From: Candidatus Methanoperedens sp.
Lineage (GTDB): Archaea; Halobacteriota; Methanosarcinia; Methanosarcinales; Methanoperedenaceae
DNA: 32,000 nucleotides
Reading direction: 5' to 3'
NCBI GenBank assembly: GCA_041494705.1
Contig: JBGQBI010000005.1
Span: 210,001 to 242,000, forward strand
Position 1 is the stretch's first letter; each line of letters opens with the position of its first letter. The notes under the pieces were generated by a model that did no database searches, was not told the DNA's origin, and saw nothing but the letters and a program-made list of their open reading frames with translations. Below, in pieces: positions 80 through 25,900 of the stretch. Made by a program: the position numbers and the translations under genes.

Positions 80-216
80 GAGAATTTTTATTGTGTCTGG
101 TTTAAAAAACCACAGAGAGCACAGAGGACACTGAGAAAAGGGGCTACTCTCTGTGCTCTCCGTGTGCTCTGTGGTCGATTATCTCTATCTGGATTCATTT
201 ACCCAGAAAAAATTAA
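80..216 (+). repeat. Hairpin-repeat element, copy A (about 130 nt; central imperfect hairpin 109-175)
   Basis: Aligns nearly base for base with 12654-12786 and more loosely with 17938-18047. The 5' arm ACCACAGAGAGCACAGAGGACAC is made of 9-nt CACAGAG-type units and pairs with the 3' arm GTGCTCTCCGTGTGCTCTGTGGT. The flanks GAGAATTTTTATT...TCTGGTTTAAAAA and GATTATC..TATCTGGATTCATTTACC are conserved. Confidence 0.85.
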
Positions 217-270
217 AAAATCTCGTAATTCTGACAAAAGGATTATACCTTACAGAGTAATTAAGCCGAT

Positions 271-4109: not shown

Positions 4110-4655
4110 ATGCCACCAAAAGCTGTTAGAACAGTAAGAGATTTAATCTACTGGCAATATGCAAAACTTATAGCTGAGTCGGTAGGTTATGGAAAAACCA
4201 AGAACTATGGTTTTATCATGGACAGATTCAAACAGCTTAAAAAAGGGGATATTCAATGGTCAGGGTCTATAAGGGAATATGTAAAAGAGCGAGAAAAGCG
4301 GAACGAATGCATATATTGCGGGAGTAAGGAGCCTTTAAGTACTGATCATCTGATACCCAAAAGCAGGGGAGGGCCTGATACGGGGGACAACGCCATTACT
4401 GCATGTAAGAGGTGCAATTCATCTAAAGGAGATAGGGGTGTTTATGAGTGGTACGGACTTGAAAGAAGGAATGAACTTCCCAGGATAGTTGAAGGAAAAT
4501 ATTTGAAGCTGCTTTACTCACTTCATGAAAAAGAAGGAACATTAGACGTAGATATCAAGGATCTGGATAAATTATGCAAGATATGCGATTTAGGGGATTT
4601 GTGCGAAGAAACATCGTTGACCGTCTATTGCCTTGAGAGCATTTTGAAGAAATAG
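4110..4655 (+). CDS. HNH endonuclease family protein
   Basis: The HNH core reads CIYCGSKEPLSTDHLIPKSRGGPDTGDNAITACKRCNSSKGDR (Cys pair, D-H, N, Cys pair). A GAGAGGT ribosome-binding site lies upstream. The gene is visibly more AT-rich than purL. Confidence 0.85.
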   Translation: MPPKAVRTVRDLIYWQYAKLIAESVGYGKTKNYGFIMDRFKQLKKGDIQWSGSIREYVKEREKRNECIYCGSKEPLSTDHLIPKSRGGPDTGDNAITACKRCNSSKGDRGVYEWYGLERRNELPRIVEGKYLKLLYSLHEKEGTLDVDIKDLDKLCKICDLGDLCEETSLTVYCLESILKK

Positions 4656-6253: not shown

Positions 6254-6667
6254 GTGGATATCAACGGTATCTGGTACAACGAACTCGGATCGATAATGGA
6301 TTTAAGAGTTTCAGGGAATGTGATGACGGGCAAATATCAAACAAAAGTTGGAGGCGCGCCGGGAATTTATCCTCTGGCGGGATATTTGAATGCACCCAAC
6401 CCCAATGGTATTGCTGTTGGCTGGACGGTTCTCTGGAATAATCAGCTTGGAAATAAGCAGAGTCTTACATCGTGGGCCGGTCAATACCAGCTCAGCGACG
6501 GGATTGAGGAAATATACACATTCTGGCTGCTTGTGAGGGAATTAGAGCATGCTGAAGACTGGGAAGCTACAAACATAGGTCAGGACATATTTACCCGCAA
6601 TAAACCCAGCGAGAAGATGATTCTAAAGGCAAAGAAAAGAGGAAAATTTTCCCATCCGATCCAATGA
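6254..6667 (+). CDS. Avidin/streptavidin-family biotin-binding protein, leaderless
   Basis: GIWYNELGS..MTGKYQTKVGG..GIAVGWTVLWNN..KQSLTSWAGQY..TFWLLV..EDWEATNIGQDIFT aligns along its length with core streptavidin (GTWYNQLGS..LTGTYESAVGN..ALGWTVAWKN..AHSATTWSGQY..TQWLLT..NAWKSTLVGHDTFT). The start is GTG at 6254, with an in-frame TAA at 6248-6250 directly upstream. Confidence 0.85.
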   Translation: MDINGIWYNELGSIMDLRVSGNVMTGKYQTKVGGAPGIYPLAGYLNAPNPNGIAVGWTVLWNNQLGNKQSLTSWAGQYQLSDGIEEIYTFWLLVRELEHAEDWEATNIGQDIFTRNKPSEKMILKAKKRGKFSHPIQ

Positions 6668-9440: not shown

Positions 9441-9494
9441 CGCTTCTTCTCCCGATAGCTGCGCCGAAGCAACATGCAATTCAGGCTTTTGCCT
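9441..9494 (-). repeat. Intergenic repeat module, copy 1 (short form: hairpin box plus AGGC-TTTT-GCCT hairpin)
   Basis: CGCTTCTTCTCCCGATAGCTGCGCCGAAG matches 9981-10009 and 10857-10882. AATTCAGGCTTTTGCCT matches 10053-10069. It lies about 70 nt upstream (minus sense) of the MetE-like gene start. Confidence 0.75.
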
Positions 9495-9625
9495 TTTTCG
9501 CGGGCGGCAACGAATATGGACAGGATTAACAGGATGGACTGGATTTTATCCTGTAAATCCTGTTATCCCGTCAGAAAAATCTGTAGAATATTAAAATGAC
9601 CTGTTAACGTTTGAAGTTCAATAAT

Positions 9626-9940
9626 TCACGCTTTTGCTTTCTCACATGCGGCGATATGTTCCTTCAAAACTGATTCTAAAGCATCAATTCTTTCCTCGGT
9701 TTTAAGCTGGATTAAAATTGCCTTGACATCTCCTTTCAGTTCAGAATTGCTCAAACGGGATTCTTCACGGAATGCTCTGAATTCGTCCTTGAGACCGTGC
9801 ATTTCTTCGGTCATATTCTTGAATCCGGTATCAACTTTTTCTTCAGGTTTAGAGATGCGTTCGGTATTCTCTCTAACCTTATCCATGATAGTAACAAGTT
9901 CTTTAAGTTTCTCGTAAATGTCTCCGAGTCCTATTGCCAT
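9626..9940 (-). CDS. Hypothetical coiled-coil protein (104 aa)
   Basis: The sequence is charged and heptad-like (EKLKELVTIMDKVRENTERI...ELKGDVKAILIQLKTEERIDALESVLKEHI). It sits directly downstream of the repeated promoter-like module. No domain was recognised. Confidence 0.55.
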   Translation of the reverse strand: MAIGLGDIYEKLKELVTIMDKVRENTERISKPEEKVDTGFKNMTEEMHGLKDEFRAFREESRLSNSELKGDVKAILIQLKTEERIDALESVLKEHIAACEKAKA

Positions 9941-9950
9941 ATATTCACTG

Positions 9951-10070
9951 GAATTCGGTTAAAACTACTTAAAACTTTGCCGCTTCTTCTCCCGATAGCG
10001 GCGTCGAAGTGATATGTAGTGAAAGCTGAAGGATTAAAGTTTGAAGTTCAATAATTCAGGCTTTTGCCTG
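9951..10070 (-). repeat. Intergenic repeat module, copy 2 (full form)
   Basis: GAATTCGGTTAAAACTACTTAAAACTTTGCCGCTTCTTCTCCCGATAGCGGCGTCGAAG...GAAGGATTAAAG matches 10820-10917. Its tail GTTTGAAGTTCAATAATTCAGGCTTTTGCC matches 9609-9638, which is the 3' end and UTR of the 104-aa gene. Confidence 0.8.
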
Positions 10071-10198
10071 ATTTATGCATTATTTCCATATTGTCATTAT
10101 GCAGAAGTGGTATACAAAAGTGAGAAAGAGAGATACGGCAAAGAATGGAGAAAAGATTTGCAAAAATCTTTATATTCAAACTCGAATAACCTACCTAA

Positions 10199-10555
10199 AT
10201 GACAGAACAAAAATTTGAAGTGATAATTGTCCCGTCTTTTCAAAAAGAGATTGAAAGCATAAGAGACAAAAAGCAATTGGAACTGATATGCAAATCAATA
10301 GAAAAGATTGAAAACATGGGCAAAAACGCAGTCAAATTGCTTCATGTAAGAGACAAATACATTTTAGGGGAACTAAAATTCATGAGCCCGCCTTACAGGC
10401 TTTATGTGATTATCAATCAGGAGAATGAAAAATTTTACGTTGTCAGATGGGAGCACAAGGAAAAGCAGCAGAAGGTGATAAATCAACTCATGTACAAATT
10501 AGAATATGCGTTTGAAAGCGGAATAAAAAACATAATGGAATTATTCAGCCATTGA
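10199..10555 (+). CDS. RelE/ParE-fold toxin-like protein (118 aa)
   Basis: The pattern FEVIIVPSFQKEIESI...ELKFMSPPYRLYVIINQENEKFYVVRWEHKEK resembles the RelE/ParE consensus (F.i....f.k.l..l / R.g.YRliy.i......v.vl.i.hR). A TATA-like CTTTATATT lies about 25 nt upstream of the ATG. Confidence 0.5.
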   Translation: MTEQKFEVIIVPSFQKEIESIRDKKQLELICKSIEKIENMGKNAVKLLHVRDKYILGELKFMSPPYRLYVIINQENEKFYVVRWEHKEKQQKVINQLMYKLEYAFESGIKNIMELFSH

Positions 10556-10774
10556 TTTGATTCTCCGCTGCAACTGGTTTTTGAAAGCTTCGGATTTTAA
10601 AGGTGTTATGCTGCCCTTTTCTATTGCTGTTATTTCCGGCATATACCTTGCAATCAAGAATTCATAATAAATCCTATCCGCCACTTCATTGGCGATGCTC
10701 TTTGAAATATCCTTTACGCTTTTCTCGTCAATCTTAAAACGGAATTCTTGCTGCTGCATATTCATATTGTCCAT
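10541..10774 (-). CDS. Hypothetical small protein (77 aa)
   Basis: The ORF lies downstream of repeat module copy 3. Its 3' end overlaps the RelE-like gene by 15 nt in convergent orientation. No domain was recognised. Confidence 0.45.
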   Translation of the reverse strand: MDNMNMQQQEFRFKIDEKSVKDISKSIANEVADRIYYEFLIARYMPEITAIEKGSITPLKSEAFKNQLQRRIKSMAE

Positions 10775-10819
10775 TTTGAAGTTTAAATAGTTTGCTGCCT
10801 CCGCATGCCCCGGTTGATT

Positions 10820-10917
10820 GAATTCTGTTAAAACTACTTAAAACTTTGCTGCGCCCGCTTCTTCTCCCGATAGCGGCGCCGGCATAGCGCGCGCTGGGAA
10901 GGCTGGAGGATTAAAAA
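10820..10917 (-). repeat. Intergenic repeat module, copy 3
   Basis: GAATTCTGTTAAAACTACTTAAAACTTTGC..CGCTTCTTCTCCCGATAGCGGCGCCGG...GGAGGATTAAAAAC is colinear with copy 2. Confidence 0.8.
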
Positions 10918-12551: not shown

Positions 12552-12653
12552 CTTTTATTTTTTTATCCGTCTACCGAAATTTTACAGCTATTCATATCAA
12601 CCTAAGACTTGACAGAACCTGTATTTTGCGCTCCATGGCACAATTGATTCATT

Positions 12654-12786
12654 AGAGAATTTTTATTATTTCTGGTTTAAAAACCACAGAGTGCACAGAG
12701 GACACAGAGAACTATTTCAACTCTGTGCTCTCTGTGTGCTCTGTGGTCGATTATCCTTATCTGGATTCATTTACCAGAAAAAATTA
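12654..12786 (+). repeat. Hairpin-repeat element, copy B (hairpin 12683-12747)
   Basis: The arms ACCACAGAGTGCACAGAGGACACAGAG and CTCTGTGCTCTCTGTGTGCTCTGTGGT pair at 27 positions: 23 Watson-Crick pairs, 3 G-T pairs and 1 mismatch, with an 11-nt loop. The flanks are near-identical to copy A. Confidence 0.9.
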
Positions 12787-12808
12787 GTCTCATTCATTAT
12801 ACGCAAAT

Positions 12809-17881: not shown

Positions 17882-17937
17882 CGTCTCGCTTTATAGTGGG
17901 GAAAGATTAATAGTTTTTGTCATGTTTGTGACTTATC

Positions 17938-18047
17938 TTCCGGTTTGAAAAACCACAGAGAGCGCAGAGGACACAGAGAAAAGCATCAACTCTCTGTGCT
18001 TCTCTGTGTCCTCCGTGGTTGATTATCCTTGCCGGACTCATTTATCA
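17938..18047 (+). repeat. Hairpin-repeat element, copy C (divergent; hairpin 17952-18019)
   Basis: ACCACAGAGAGCGCAGAGGACACAGAGA...TCTCTGTGCTTCTCTGTGTCCTCCGTGGT, followed by GATTATCCTTGCCGGACTCATTTATC. It lies in the argG/mtaD divergent intergenic region. Confidence 0.8.
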
Positions 18048-18094
18048 TGTCATTTTAGAAAACTTATTCTATACCGCCAACCAACATATATTCC

Positions 18095-20753: not shown

Positions 20754-21920
20754 TTAACTCCACAACTGCCCGCCCAGTATCGCTTCAGTCCTATCATTGG
20801 TACTCTGGTGCATTTTCCTGATTCTTACGAGGTATTCATTCCCCCTCAGTTGCGGTTCTTCAAAAACAGCATCCACACCCACTAATTTCAGGTAGTCCTC
20901 AAATTCCTTTACGGTATCAAGGCTCTTCACCCTTATCTGCACGTTCTCGGCAATACGTTCGCCATCTTTTTTCTTTTTAATGGTTTTTATCATGGGCAAA
21001 AGAAGACTTTCCCCGAGCTGCCTGCACCTTTTTTCCACGCTCTCCTCATCCTCGCCCCATTCAACAGACTGGAAGGCTTCCCTGCATACCCTTCCGAAGA
21101 AAAAATCCCGCCCGAAATCATTGTAGAATTCAAAAGCGTATCTCAAGTCTGCGCAGTTGCTCTCTGAACTTGTGTACTTTACCGAGGGAAGAATCATTTG
21201 CGGGTCTTTGACAACCACCCCTTCATGCATCGAACCGCCTAATTCCTTGATAATCCGCGAAATCCCGGTATGCGCTTCCCCGATTTCAAACTCCCCGAAA
21301 AGCCTGACTGATTTTATACCGTACTTATCCACAAGCGCCCGCCGTTTCATCACAGGCAGGGGTTTCCCTGTTATCTTCTCTCTTATGTCAAAAACAAAAA
21401 AATCAAGGGACTCTATATCATAAAATGTTTTTGGCACATACGGGCTGTCCGGGCCTACCATCTCCCCGCACAGCACAAGTTCAGGATGATCCTTGAAAAA
21501 ATCATATCCGATGAGGTCAATTGCTTTCTCGGTTGTATAAGGACAAATAAAACCGCCGCGCGTGAGAGCAACGAGCGCATCGCCGATTAACGCCACCCTG
21601 ACATTGTAGCCGTTCATCTTCTCCTCCACTGCCACTGTCCCGCATGAAGAGAAATGCCTTTGCAGGGCAGGAGATAGCATCAATGTCCGCGAAATCTTGG
21701 GAAACCCGCGCACTATATCAAACGGTTTGGTGAATACCGATGTGCCTCCTTCAATCAAGGAAACAGGTTTATCGAACCTGAATAATTCTTTCTTTCCCCA
21801 TACATACTGTATTGTCTTTCTTTTCAGCGCGCCTGTTATCCTGTGTTCGGGAATATCCAGTAGTTCGGATACTTTTCCTATATCCAGTTTATTGGCAAAT
21901 TGTGAGACATCCCGTCTCAT
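20754..21920 (-). CDS. ATP-dependent RNA ligase, Rnl3 / Pab1020 family
   Basis: Nucleotidyltransferase motif I is EEKMNGYNVRV, containing the catalytic Lys. The downstream motifs CGEMVG and EGVVVKD are present. The 388-aa size fits archaeal homodimeric RNA ligases. Confidence 0.8.
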   Translation of the reverse strand: MRRDVSQFANKLDIGKVSELLDIPEHRITGALKRKTIQYVWGKKELFRFDKPVSLIEGGTSVFTKPFDIVRGFPKISRTLMLSPALQRHFSSCGTVAVEEKMNGYNVRVALIGDALVALTRGGFICPYTTEKAIDLIGYDFFKDHPELVLCGEMVGPDSPYVPKTFYDIESLDFFVFDIREKITGKPLPVMKRRALVDKYGIKSVRLFGEFEIGEAHTGISRIIKELGGSMHEGVVVKDPQMILPSVKYTSSESNCADLRYAFEFYNDFGRDFFFGRVCREAFQSVEWGEDEESVEKRCRQLGESLLLPMIKTIKKKKDGERIAENVQIRVKSLDTVKEFEDYLKLVGVDAVFEEPQLRGNEYLVRIRKMHQSTNDRTEAILGGQLWS

Positions 21921-22699
21921 CCTTTCTCCGCCAGATGCTTGATAATCGCTCTCCTGCTGATTACGCCCACCAGCTCGTCCTTGAGATTAAGAACAGGCAC
22001 CCCGCCAATATTCTCATCCAGCATCAATGATACGACCTCGGAAATAGGTGTATTCGTTCTTACGGATTTCACACTCCTGGTCATGATATCACCCACAATA
22101 ATGTTGCGGATTCTCCCATCCTGCTGATTATCCGGTACGAGGTCCCTGAAATTCATCATCGCCTTTGCAACATCACGCTCGGTGATGATTCCTACGATAT
22201 CGCTATTTTCAACTACAGGCACCCTTCCGATATCGTTGTCCAGCATTATGCGCCTTGCGTGCGCGACCCTGTCTCCGGGGCTTACGGATATGGGTTCTTT
22301 CATTATCTCGGCTGCATATCCTTTCACGCCCTTTGCGCTTTTTAATATCTCATGCGGTGTCACCCATCCAAGAATATTGCCATTATCAGTCACGACGAGT
22401 ATTCCCCCTTTCCTGTCCATCAATGCAATCGCATCTTCAATACCCGTATCGGAAAGGACTTTCGCGAACAAATCCGTTGTGGCGGCAGCAACATGCAGCG
22501 ATGATGCGGGAAGATTCGATGTCTTCCATGTCCCGAGCTTCCGGGCTATGCTCCTCATCGTAATTACACCGGTGAGTTCGCTTCCGTTAGTCACCAGCAG
22601 CCTGCGTGTATCATGCTTATCCATCAAGTCCATTGCATGTGAAAGTTTGTCAGACTTATGCACCGAAACAGGTTCACTCATTATGTCTTTTACCTTCAT
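21917..22699 (-). CDS. CBS-domain-only protein (four CBS motifs, two Bateman modules), paralog 5
   Basis: Repeated units have the form V.DIM...V.....d.l..a..lM.....g..PV.d..g.lvGiit..Di. Its stop overlaps the RNA ligase start (ATGA). Confidence 0.88.
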   Translation of the reverse strand: MKVKDIMSEPVSVHKSDKLSHAMDLMDKHDTRRLLVTNGSELTGVITMRSIARKLGTWKTSNLPASSLHVAAATTDLFAKVLSDTGIEDAIALMDRKGGILVVTDNGNILGWVTPHEILKSAKGVKGYAAEIMKEPISVSPGDRVAHARRIMLDNDIGRVPVVENSDIVGIITERDVAKAMMNFRDLVPDNQQDGRIRNIIVGDIMTRSVKSVRTNTPISEVVSLMLDENIGGVPVLNLKDELVGVISRRAIIKHLAEKG

Positions 22700-22708
22700 G
22701 TTATCATC

Positions 22709-23557
22709 TCACATTGTCATTATTGATTTCACTATATTCTCACCGGTCAATATCCCCATAACCCCATTGCCCGCCACGGGCAGACCGTTTATTCTCTCTT
22801 TTACCATTATGCCTGCGGCATACGTTGCCAGGTCATCGCTCTTAATCGAAATAATCGGGCTTGACATGATGTCCTCGGCGACGAGGGGCACTTCCTCTAT
22901 ATACCTGTTCTGTTTCCTTCCGGCTGCGCTTTCCTTACGCGTCATCTTTATTTCTTTTTGAGGGAGACCGCCTCTTTTATTTTTCATCTCCGTGAACGTG
23001 AGATTGGAACTTGTAATAATCCCAACCGGCATATCATTTTCTTCAAGAACCACTGCCCTATCTATCATATTTGCATCAAGTTCGTGAAGTATGTGGCTTA
23101 TCGTGTGATGCCTGTGAACGGTTAATGCAGGTTCAATTTTCAAATCCTTGACTTTCAGGTCAAGATCCAGAGTTGAGAAATATCTGATTAAGTCCCATTT
23201 TGTGACTATGCCTATCACTTCATTCTTATTGTTGACAACCGGCAACCCGCCAATATTATTTTCATTCATCAATTCTGCAAGCTGCTTTGGTGTCGCCTCA
23301 GGGAATATCGTTATCAGGCTCTCTGTCATGACTTTTCTTACAGGTATATCATCAATCGGCCGCCTGCGCCACTGCGGCTCGGCCTGGTTAAGCCTCCTGC
23401 TTATGTCTTTCTTGGTCACAACCCCAATGGGCTTGTTATTCTCAACGATTACAAGCCTTCCGATTCTGTGGCGAAGCATCAGGTTCCTGGCTCTCGCGAC
23501 ATTCTCATCCGGCGATACTACATAGACTGGTGCGCTCATTATATCCTTGATTTTCAT
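22709..23557 (-). CDS. CBS-domain-only protein (four CBS motifs with a basic insert), paralog 4
   Basis: There are four CBS repeats. The basic linker KNKRGGLPQKEIKMTRKESAAGRKQNR lies between the Bateman modules. The downstream spacer is 9 nt. Confidence 0.88.
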   Translation of the reverse strand: MKIKDIMSAPVYVVSPDENVARARNLMLRHRIGRLVIVENNKPIGVVTKKDISRRLNQAEPQWRRRPIDDIPVRKVMTESLITIFPEATPKQLAELMNENNIGGLPVVNNKNEVIGIVTKWDLIRYFSTLDLDLKVKDLKIEPALTVHRHHTISHILHELDANMIDRAVVLEENDMPVGIITSSNLTFTEMKNKRGGLPQKEIKMTRKESAAGRKQNRYIEEVPLVAEDIMSSPIISIKSDDLATYAAGIMVKERINGLPVAGNGVMGILTGENIVKSIMTM

Positions 23558-23566
23558 AAAAACCTC

Positions 23567-24502
23567 TTAATCCGCCATTGCCCTGACAAAATCCCGTTCT
23601 GTTATGATGCCCTTAAGTTCGCCTTCTTCAAGCACTGGAAGCGAACCGACATTCTTATCAAGCATGACGCTTGCAGCCTCTCCTAAATCCACATCAGATT
23701 TCGTAAAAATTACATCTCTTCTTATAAGAGTGCTGATGGGTACTTCAAAAACCTCTCTGGCGTTTCCGGTAACAAGCCGGTTGAACATGTCGCCGCTTCC
23801 CAGGAAACGCATAATGTCAGAAGCCGTAATTATGCCTATCAGGACATTATCCCGGATTACGGGAAGTCTCCTGAAACCATTATTTATCATGGATTTTGCT
23901 GCAATCCCGATTGACATATCGGCCGGGGCGGTTACTATATTTTTGCTCATGTATTCATCTATTGTCTTGCCCGTGATAATTCCGGATATCAGAAAAACAA
24001 AGTCCCTTTCTGAGATGATGGATTTTACTCTCTCCTCTCCGTCAAGGATGGGAATCCCGCCGATATTTTCTTTTATCATCGTATCCATTGCATCCTTAAG
24101 CGAATCTTTTTCATTGAGCGTTACAACATTCTCTTCCATTATCTCGCTTATACTGCCGTTAACGGCTGCAAGCAGGTTTCCTTTGAACCTGTTCTTTACT
24201 ATAAGGTTTCTTTGACCGCCTCCAAGAAAATCCACAATATCCTGCGAGGTCACTATTCCTTTTAGGCGGCTGGTACCCGCATCAACCACCGGGAGTCTCC
24301 TGAAACCGTGCTTCAACATGGTCTTGACTGCCTCAATCACCGGCATCGTAGGGGGTATTGTCACAACTTCCCTTGATGCTACTGTCATTATATCGCCAGA
24401 TTTTTCAGAAATCCTTGATTTAAAATCAATTGGCGCCATATTCCGCATATACCCTCTGGGGTCCTGTTGTTTTTTTTTCATGGTTATGTTGCTAAAATTC
24501 AT
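23567..24502 (-). CDS. CBS-domain-only protein (four CBS motifs, N-terminal extension), paralog 3
   Basis: There are four CBS repeats, with GFRRLPV appearing twice, and a basic N-terminal extension of about 40 aa. The ribosome-binding site is AGGTG. The downstream spacer is 9 nt. Confidence 0.88.
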   Translation of the reverse strand: MNFSNITMKKKQQDPRGYMRNMAPIDFKSRISEKSGDIMTVASREVVTIPPTMPVIEAVKTMLKHGFRRLPVVDAGTSRLKGIVTSQDIVDFLGGGQRNLIVKNRFKGNLLAAVNGSISEIMEENVVTLNEKDSLKDAMDTMIKENIGGIPILDGEERVKSIISERDFVFLISGIITGKTIDEYMSKNIVTAPADMSIGIAAKSMINNGFRRLPVIRDNVLIGIITASDIMRFLGSGDMFNRLVTGNAREVFEVPISTLIRRDVIFTKSDVDLGEAASVMLDKNVGSLPVLEEGELKGIITERDFVRAMAD

Positions 24503-24511
24503 AAAGCACCT

Positions 24512-25285
24512 TTAGATGAACGCTTTGATTATATCACTTCTATCAACTATACCTGCAAGTTTCCCGCCATTGACTACAGAAAGCCTCCCTACATCAAGCT
24601 TCATAAAAGCCTGTACCGCTTCCTTCAAACTCGTTTCAGGAGTTAAAGAATATGCAGGAGTGCTCATAATCTTTTCTACAGGCGGCGACATGGAAGACCT
24701 CGTCCCCTGCTCATCCTCCCTCTCGATTCTCGCATAGCCTGCGTTGATAATATTACGCCGGGTGACCATTCCGATAAGTTTGTCATTTTTTACCACGGGC
24801 AAACCTGAAAAACCTGTTTCTTTCATGTTCAGCCAGACTTTGGCAACATTGTCCTTAGAAGAACATGTTTTTACATCGGTGGTCATTACCTCGCTTATCT
24901 TCTTTGAAGGAATTTTATCTAAGTCAAGGTTCCTGAAAATATCAACCATGCTCAAAATACCTGCAAGCGTCATATCCTGCCCGGATTTCAATACAGGAGT
25001 GCGACCCACGCCTGCCTCTATCATCAATCTGGCAGCCTGCATCATATCCATATCAGGATATACAAACGGGAACTCAGACATGAATCCTTCAACTGTTACA
25101 TTTGATTTTGTGGAATATATGTTCAACAATTCCTTCTCATTTAATATCCCGATGACCCTGTTCTTATTATCCACCACTGGCACCGTGCGAAAATGCCTGT
25201 CCCTCATCAACTGGCGCGCATGTGTCATAAATTCTGTACCGTGAATAAAAACAGGGTTTTTGGTCATTACATTTTTTACTTTCAT
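24512..25285 (-). CDS. CBS-domain-only protein (four CBS motifs), paralog 2
   Basis: There are four CBS repeats. The ribosome-binding site is AAGGAG. The downstream spacer is 9 nt. Confidence 0.88.
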   Translation of the reverse strand: MKVKNVMTKNPVFIHGTEFMTHARQLMRDRHFRTVPVVDNKNRVIGILNEKELLNIYSTKSNVTVEGFMSEFPFVYPDMDMMQAARLMIEAGVGRTPVLKSGQDMTLAGILSMVDIFRNLDLDKIPSKKISEVMTTDVKTCSSKDNVAKVWLNMKETGFSGLPVVKNDKLIGMVTRRNIINAGYARIEREDEQGTRSSMSPPVEKIMSTPAYSLTPETSLKEAVQAFMKLDVGRLSVVNGGKLAGIVDRSDIIKAFI

Positions 25286-25351
25286 AGTCTCATACTCCTT
25301 TTATTGCGCATATATTTGTTACTTAAATAAAATCCCAAATTTACTGCGTCT

Positions 25352-25900
25352 TTAAGTCTCTCTGCAACTCTCACAAAGAAGTTTTCCATCTACAAGTAAC
25401 AGGGTATCAACATTATCGCCGCATTCCTCGCATATCCCACGATTGATATTTTGAGGAACCTCCATTGAAAAAACCTTCTCCCGGTGCATCTTGATGAGGT
25501 CGGAGAAAATACTGCCCATCTCGGCTGAAATCGCGATGAGGTCGGTATCCGTGACGATGCCCACGAGTTTCCCATTTTCCACAACAGGTAATCGCCTTAT
25601 CTCCATTTTCACCATCTTATGCATGGTATCGGTAACATCCTCTTCGGTATTTATGGTTATCAGGGGAGTGGTCATCAATTCTCTCATGGAAATATCCTCC
25701 GGTTTAAGATTCCTGGATACGATTTTCCTGACAATATCACGCTCTGTGATTATTCCAACCGGTTGCTTTCTATCTGTGATAATGATGCTGCCAACATCAT
25801 AGTCTAACATTTTTTTTGCTAATTTCTGGACATCACTTTTTATGTCAATGGTAACTACATCCCTGGTCATTATTTCTTTTACCGGCATCTTAACTTCCAT
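25352..25900 (-). CDS. CBS pair protein with C-terminal zinc ribbon, paralog 1
   Basis: Two CBS repeats are followed by CEECGDNVDTLLLVDGKLLCESC (CxxC...CxxC). The ribosome-binding site is GGGAGGAT. Confidence 0.88.
   Translation of the reverse strand: MEVKMPVKEIMTRDVVTIDIKSDVQKLAKKMLDYDVGSIIITDRKQPVGIITERDIVRKIVSRNLKPEDISMRELMTTPLITINTEEDVTDTMHKMVKMEIRRLPVVENGKLVGIVTDTDLIAISAEMGSIFSDLIKMHREKVFSMEVPQNINRGICEECGDNVDTLLLVDGKLLCESCRET

Follow-up and report, generated by a model that had tools for sequence, protein, structure and literature searches.

What kind of element are the three hairpin-forming repeats that lie within 18 kb of the Candidatus Methanoperedens DNA analysed here? A preliminary description had reported three same-orientation copies with a hairpin of about 27 bp and three 9-mers per arm. 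It regarded them as a dispersed, mobile family without a name and considered either mobilisation by a Y1 transposase or a structured small RNA. The analysis of the whole stretch of 32,000 nt (the window) and of related loci suggests instead, with a probability of roughly 0.7, that the repeats form a MITE family that is found in Candidatus Methanoperedens and in related Methanosarcinales, carries a nonamer-repeat foldback and is moved in trans. Of the identities considered, a new MITE family of this kind has the best support.

The arm coordinates were re-read directly from the window letters. All three copies are located on the plus strand and contain an imperfect hairpin of 26-27 bp with three 9-mers per arm and a loop of 11-13 nt. 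Copy A extends from position 80 to 224 (145 bp), with its central foldback at 110-174 (5' arm 110-135, loop 136-148, 3' arm 149-174). Copy B is found at 12655-12791 (137 bp; 5' arm 12684-12709, loop 12710-12720, 3' arm 12721-12746). Copy C, the ends of which are shortened or diverged, is found at 17924-18047 (124 bp; 5' arm 17953-17978, loop 17979-17991, 3' arm 17992-18018, the latter 27 nt long with one extra T). The purine-rich 5' arm has the form CCACAGAG-nnC-rCAGAG-GAC-ACnGAG and the 3' arm the complementary form CTCTGTG-c-TCTCyGTG-tn-CTCyGTGG. A recount by hand of the stem of copy B agreed with the earlier one: 23 pairs are Watson-Crick, 3 are G-T and 1 position is mismatched. The pattern CCACAGAGNGCNCAGAGGACAC, in which 20 bases are specified, matches exactly the three 5' arms and, with three mismatches, the complementary arm of B. 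No match to it was found in 100 shuffles of the window. None of the copies would be expected by chance, and the earlier observation is confirmed. R1, a covariance model based on 72 relatives, likewise retrieved exactly copies A, B and C from the window, with 84.6, 95.3 and 88.4 bits, and no further copy.

The flanks that had been called conserved, GGTTTAAAAA and GATTATCC..CTGGATTCATTTACC, are indeed present in A and B, while C contains only diverged forms (CCGGTTTGAAAAA; GATTATCCTTGCCGGACTCATTTATC). The right inner spacer of copy A, TCGATTATCTCTATCTGGATTCATTTAC (175-202, plus strand), includes the GATTATC that was demanded by the scan pattern described below; CTT(A/G)C and CTGGATTCATTTAC beside it are kept in part of the family. 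None of the elements of 124-145 bp contains an ORF, and one variant of the family measures about 190 bp.

The window holds further repeats and some unusual genes. At 9441-10902, three modules (47, 34 and 33 nt; 64-94% identical) recur two to three times between small ORFs. They adjoin a Pilin_N gene and a DUF5371 gene and may be shared upstream regions. At 21917-25900, five consecutive minus-strand genes with CBS domains have a stretch of 32 nt in common, located at or close to their starts (66-100% identity over six copies); these genes look like tandem paralogues. A stand-alone HNH endonuclease ORF (4110-4655, 181 aa) and an avidin-family ORF (6254-6667, 137 aa) are located among housekeeping genes. 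To our knowledge, an avidin homologue is uncommon in an archaeon.

The limits of the elements became apparent from an alignment of 80 related copies, which revealed an inverted repeat outside the hairpin, with the outer ends GAGACTTTTTATTATCTTCTGG (left) and CCAGAAnAAATTAAnAAGTCTC (right). These terminal inverted repeats (TIRs) are about 21 bp long, with the consensus GAGA[C/A]TTTTTATTAT.TTCTGG ... CCAGAA.AAATTA..A.TCTC. In the window, the inverted ends read GAGAATTTTTATT... / ...TCTC in A and B and are weak in C. The left TIR of copy A, GAGAATTTTTATTGTGTCTGG (80-100, plus strand), holds a TATA-like TTTTTATT and is the inverted complement of the right TIR CCAGAAAAAATTAAAAAATCTC (203-224, plus strand), which is one substitution away from the right-end consensus; the GAGACTTTTTATTATCTTCTGG end is also found in metagenome copies. 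In copy B, the left and right TIRs are GAGAATTTTTATTATTTCTGG (12655-12675) and CCAGAAAAAATTAGTCTC (12774-12791), both given on the plus strand.

Target-site duplications are found immediately outside these ends. Copy A is directly abutted on both sides by the identical 7-bp sequence GTAATTC (73-79 and 225-231; boundaries GTAATTC/GAGAA...ATCTC/GTAATTC) and copy B by identical 8-mers, ATTCATTA (12647-12654 and 12792-12799; boundaries ATTCATTA/GAGAA...AGTCTC/ATTCATTA). Copy C is enclosed by a 6-bp direct repeat, TGTCAT (17918-17923 and 18048-18053; boundaries TGTCAT/.../TGTCAT), a probable target-site duplication. The limits of C are the points at which the homology to the flanks of two related genomic loci (L245 and L247) stops and then resumes. 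The extents given in the preliminary description thus had the right locations and were too short, as they omitted both the TIRs and the flanking duplications.

Beyond the window, the informative duplication tests are those anchored at the element ends. Among 11 metagenome copies with both ends recognised, the abutting octamers are at least 7/8 identical in 6; the same test on mispaired flanks yielded a mean of 0.19 and a maximum of 2 in 2000 permutations. Examples of these duplications are AAAATATG, AGAAGTAG and AACGTTG, and the targets are AT-rich and variable in sequence. An unanchored search for direct repeats anywhere in the flanks had no discrimination in AT-rich DNA (51 of 80 copies versus 52 in the control). 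Recognisable GAGAC ends are found in only about one quarter of the 80 copies, the others being diverged or different, so some of the remaining three quarters may be immobile or of other origin.

The 80 copies derive from a metagenome scan for the hairpin plus its right flank, which gave at least 120 loci. After removal of chance matches and bacterial-type hairpins, at least 80 distinct copies remained, including the three of the window and two from MAGs. Since the scan pattern demanded CCACAGAG and GTGGTNGATTATC, the conservation of the core looks inflated. The family is therefore not confined to the three loci at which it was noticed, and its description as dispersed holds. Except for a few orthologous sets, the flanks of the 80 copies are unrelated. 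One of the proteins of the window is encoded by contig JBGPSC010000002.1 of GCA_041489935.1, and its nearest named homologues belong to Candidatus Methanoperedens sp. (85-92% identity); both results identify the host as Methanoperedens. One Methanosarcinales MAG (L031:4760-4930) carries the same ends (GAGATTTTTTATTATTTTCTGG ... AAAAAGTCTC) around a hairpin of CGCAGAG units spaced 10 nt apart.

Clustering of the neighbouring proteins yielded no recurrent family beside the copies, and the four arrangements of neighbouring ORFs are about equally frequent (++ 18, -- 16, +- 13, -+ 12). Of the copies near gene starts, 22 have one orientation and 18 the other. In the window, all three copies precede plus-strand genes by 76-98 nt, counted from the hairpin end to the gene start, namely an ORF of the PTPS family (PTPS-like; A), tRNA-Val (B) and a deaminase (C). 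As the orientations elsewhere are uniform, this placement looks like chance. The 456 kb of metagenome flanks contained no second copy, which makes three copies in 18 kb locally dense; a whole genome may contain a modest number of copies.

The window was compared with syntenic loci of four further Methanoperedens genomes. Copy B is absent upstream of tRNA-Val in L246 and L247. When element B and one copy of its duplication are taken out of the window, the remaining sequence is collinear with L246 on both flanks. Judged by this collinearity, the region upstream of tRNA-Val in L246 is an empty site, with sequence divergence blocking a base-exact proof. The site of copy C, between argG and the deaminase gene, is occupied in every strain examined, by different elements. 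A CACAGAG element is present there in the window, L246 and L128; the orthologous copy in L128 (2745-2822, compared with window positions 17992-18018) lacks exactly one 9-mer of the 3' arm. L245 (9600-9900) contains a different insert of 1.1 kb with an ORF of 183 aa, which ends in a hairpin of CACGGAT nonamers. L247 (9700-9960) contains hairpins of CGCAAAG nonamers, the flank of which, GGTGAATTATTCTGGAGTGAATTC, resembles the right spacer of the window elements in the opposite orientation.

A MITE is defined by TIRs, by target-site duplications (here of about 8 bp), by its small size and by the absence of coding capacity, and the preferred reading is based on these features together with the dispersal over many unrelated intergenic sites in either orientation and the presence or absence at one site between strains. 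The earlier idea of a mobile repeat is right in kind. Copy C speaks against it with its weak inverted ends and a repeat of only 6 bp, and a plain MITE leaves unaccounted for the near-identical hairpin arm in many bacterial phyla and viruses (see below).

The unit, in which TIRs enclose asymmetric spacers and a central foldback of three CACAGAG-type 9-mers per arm, is probably mobilised in trans by a cut-and-paste (DDE-type) transposase that makes staggered cuts of about 8 bp. The foldback would most simply represent two subterminal regions of an ancestral insertion sequence, joined by an internal deletion, and the 9-mers, spaced by about one helical turn, would then be putative subterminal protein-binding repeats. 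The autonomous partner is predicted to be 1-2 kb long, bounded by GAGACTTTTTATTATC.../...GTCTC and flanked by 8-bp duplications. In the ISfinder tables, IS256-like families have ends that start with GA or GG and duplications of 8-9 bp. The window and about 2 Mb of compared loci yielded neither an autonomous element with matching ends nor a transposase. A search for the end motifs across all loci returned only the MITE ends and one degenerate remnant in L132. Pairs of arms 0.4-5 kb apart enclose ordinary genes (transketolase, AHSA1, terminase) and no transposases. Effects on the host, for which the TATA-like left end and the minus-strand hairpin followed by T5-6 are candidates, would be a side effect; selection for an effect on neighbouring transcription is not apparent from the orientations, which are unbiased. 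V(D)J RSS heptamers and nonamers, DnaA boxes, archaeal ORB elements, C/D box RNAs, k-turns and the Type III restriction site CAGAG were considered as counterparts and rejected, the similarity being only partial.

The alternative that survives best concerns the hairpin rather than the element around it. It can be proposed, tentatively, that the actual unit is the CACAGAG nonamer hairpin, which would have spread or been selected across prokaryotes and viruses by a mechanism of its own, either because a conserved protein binds it or because its two arms evolve in concert, with the Methanoperedens MITE as only one carrier. Such a unit and a MITE identity of the window copies are compatible and not mutually exclusive. 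The proposal is based on a genome scan with the pattern CCACAGAGNNNNCAGAGGACACNGAG, which specifies 21 bases and for which we calculate a chance expectation of about 0.3 matches in 596 Gb. The arm CCACAGAG..CAGAGGACAC.GAG was found at no fewer than 119 genome loci (L001-L119) from about 18 phyla. Among the matches listed are Bacteroidota, Cyanobacteriota, Acidobacteriota, Planctomycetota, Verrucomicrobiota, Chloroflexota, Pseudomonadota, Desulfobacterota, Gemmatimonadota, Chlamydiota and others, in addition to Methanosarcinales and Methanoperedens, and they include isolate genomes, such as those of Bacteroides finegoldii and Lacipirellula limnantheis. The same arm pattern is present in at least 120 viral contigs (L249-L368), many of which come from a single group of phages with terminase, portal and helicase genes in common; the left end motif of the MITE is absent from the viral contigs. 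A scrambled core and a CGCAAAG core gave one match each as controls, so the abundance is specific to the CACAGAG arm sequence. In 76 of 124 cases, the complementary arm follows within 400 nt (13-340 nt downstream). The plasmid collection gave one weak match, from Bacteroides and without annotation.

Comparisons of related loci point in the same direction. At the argG site the type of core is exchanged between constant flanks, and the same applies to an orthologous phage intergenic site (L259, L355, L350, L362, L292), which contains a full CACAGAG hairpin, the 5' arm only, GGCGGAA repeats or arms of TTAAG repeats. One MITE frame carries either CACAGAG or CGCAGAG units. In the viral contig L301 (3560-4010 and 6330-6776), two sets of three tandem units of 149-153 bp each show a CGCAAAG hairpin that encloses a CACAGAG hairpin. 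Single transitions connect the core types CACAGAG, CGCAGAG, CGCAAAG and CACGGAT, and a change affects every unit of the two arms at once. Two bacterial loci (L022 and L047) have one arm expanded to 7-8 units, which together with the unit lost in L128 indicates that the unit number changes by slippage. In Nostoc (L002, L004, L072, L115) and Microcoleus (L014, L040, L083, L049), the CACAGAG array is unpaired and lies inside other inverted-repeat elements, e.g. GGACTTACGCA...TGCGTAAGTCC.

Against an independent unit stands that the neighbourhoods in bacteria, viruses and archaea revealed no associated gene. The genome matches have no consistently neighbouring gene. The bacterial hairpins, with a stem base R-CC...GG-Y usually within TTnR/YnAA, have no flanking duplication, and the archaeal family shows no covariation.

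The recurrence of the arm across domains is real, and no explanation for it was found here or in the literature. Concerted evolution (slippage and palindrome correction), cassette-like replacement and a shared binding factor are possible causes. An undescribed module common to archaea, about 18 bacterial phyla and many viruses, which can be swapped at a fixed intergenic site and can nest, is a conclusion that we put forward as possible and by no means probable. No description of the CACAGAG motif was found in the literature, which was searched for the sequence itself, for repeats of Methanoperedens and for MITEs of archaea. As Rfam provided no matching family either, the repeats still belong to no named family, as initially stated. 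In a census of 1.4 million prokaryotic MITEs, 97.4% were genus-specific and no bacterial mixed-phylum cluster was present at 95% identity (PMC11602168). Measured against this census, so broad a sharing of the arm is unusual, yet a 26-nt arm is not a whole element.

A second alternative appears improbable, namely that transcription from the TATA-like left end produces structured small RNAs or cis-regulatory leaders, which would act via the hairpin. It draws on the TATA-like TTTTTATT about 24 nt upstream of the first hairpin base, on the position of the three window copies before plus-strand genes and on the single-strand fold of the three regions, which is far more stable than that of shuffled sequences (z -3.5 to -8.5). 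The TATA-like end, however, is missing from many copies, an oligo-T terminator is lacking on the plus strand (T5-6 follows the hairpin on the minus strand), and the 80 copies show no orientation bias. In the core alignment of 72 copies, 88% of the alignment cells are paired. Covariation, which had been suggested as a check on the stem, was at or below that of every one of 500 shuffles, and changes on both sides were found in only 2 of 28 pairs. Pair-breaking changes are common (25 copies at pair 20-65, 13 at pair 29-55); of the 72 copies, 63 have a mismatch at pair 17-68 and 66 at pair 27-57. Uncompensated stem mutations are expected of decaying repeat copies, and the stem pattern fits such DNA copies and not a selected RNA structure; in young repeats, missing covariation may be compatible with transcription. 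At the gathering threshold, Rfam returned only tRNAs for the window and only tRNAs and SRP RNA when five loci were included; at E<=10, only generic miRNA-like hairpins appeared, far below their own cut-offs.

The claim that the fold is better in the plus-sense strand applies to some copies only. As RNA, 49 of the 72 copies fold better on the minus strand and 23 on the plus strand; as DNA, the numbers are 36 and 33, and copy A folds better on the minus strand. A strand-specific fold was consequently discarded, since the preference varies by copy. Two further roles were also rejected: that of a promoter or leader, given the uniform orientation to neighbouring ORFs and the 22 versus 18 copies near gene starts, and that of a transcription terminator, with a minus-strand gene downstream of 34 copies and a plus-strand gene downstream of 37.

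The weakest alternative, a REP/REPIN or an IS200/IS605 PATE that a Y1 (HUH) transposase mobilises in the form of a single-stranded hairpin, would account for imperfect palindromes that are dispersed and intergenic, and for bacterial relatives that are bare palindromes without duplications and with a fixed head R-CCAC...GTGG-Y, loosely like tagged REP palindromes. It is nevertheless very unlikely and is contradicted by the TIRs and the duplications of 6-8 bp, which are not made by Y1 transposition. A GTAG-type head and paired inverted doublets are lacking, the fold prefers neither strand, and neither the window nor the compared loci, including L243, contain a Y1 transposase gene.

Methanoperedens is an uncultured methane oxidiser, and its mobile DNA is under active study. 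With the MITE reading, an unassigned repeat becomes an annotatable mobile element of this genus, with ends, a duplication size, a covariance model and a use as a strain marker. The arm repeats probably underlie many spurious small ORFs with repeat peptides. MITEs of prokaryotes are reported to be genus-specific, and a 26-nt arm that is nearly the same in archaea, phages and many bacterial phyla departs from this rule. If a common mechanism does stand behind the hairpin, it would be a widespread, undescribed feature of prokaryotic intergenic DNA, and the hairpin module would imply a dedicated mechanism of propagation or homogenisation, or a conserved binding factor, without a name.

Among known systems, REP/REPIN-RAYT elements are also imperfect palindromes, dispersed and intergenic, and the bacterial relatives of the hairpin resemble them as bare palindromes with a fixed head. 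REPs, in contrast, are 20-40 nt long, have a GT[AG]G head and no TIRs or target-site duplications, are lineage-specific and co-evolve with a RAYT gene, whereas the window elements have the head CCAC, a foldback of about 65 nt, TIRs and duplications. IS200/IS605 PATEs are non-autonomous and carry hairpins, too. They differ in having two different subterminal hairpins, no TIR, no duplication and insertion 3' of a fixed tetra- or pentanucleotide, where the window elements have a single central hairpin, TIRs and variable, AT-rich duplications.

Mu, Tn7, IS21 and plant CACTA/Mutator elements have several short direct repeats inside each end, inverted between the ends. By analogy with these subterminal repeat arrays, the 9-mers may be bound by a transposase. 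We know of no counterpart to the 9-bp period and the 9-mer sequence among transposons with subterminal repeats.

Correia elements, MITEs of Neisseria, are about 100-155 bp long and have inverted ends, a TA duplication, a long hairpin when transcribed and promoter-like sequence near genes. The window elements are similar to them in size, inverted ends, target duplication, hairpin and a possibly promoter-like end. Correia elements are restricted to Neisseria, duplicate TA, have no sequence similarity to the window elements and form their stem from the terminal repeat and not from a core of tandem nonamers. From prokaryotic MITEs in general, the window elements differ in their interior, a regular nonamer foldback, in an arm that is shared far beyond the genus and in that no partner IS was found. 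They agree with the MITEs of Sulfolobus, haloarchaea and Methanosarcina (PMC11602168) in being small, non-coding, intergenic and strain-variable, with TIRs, short target-site duplications and foldback potential.
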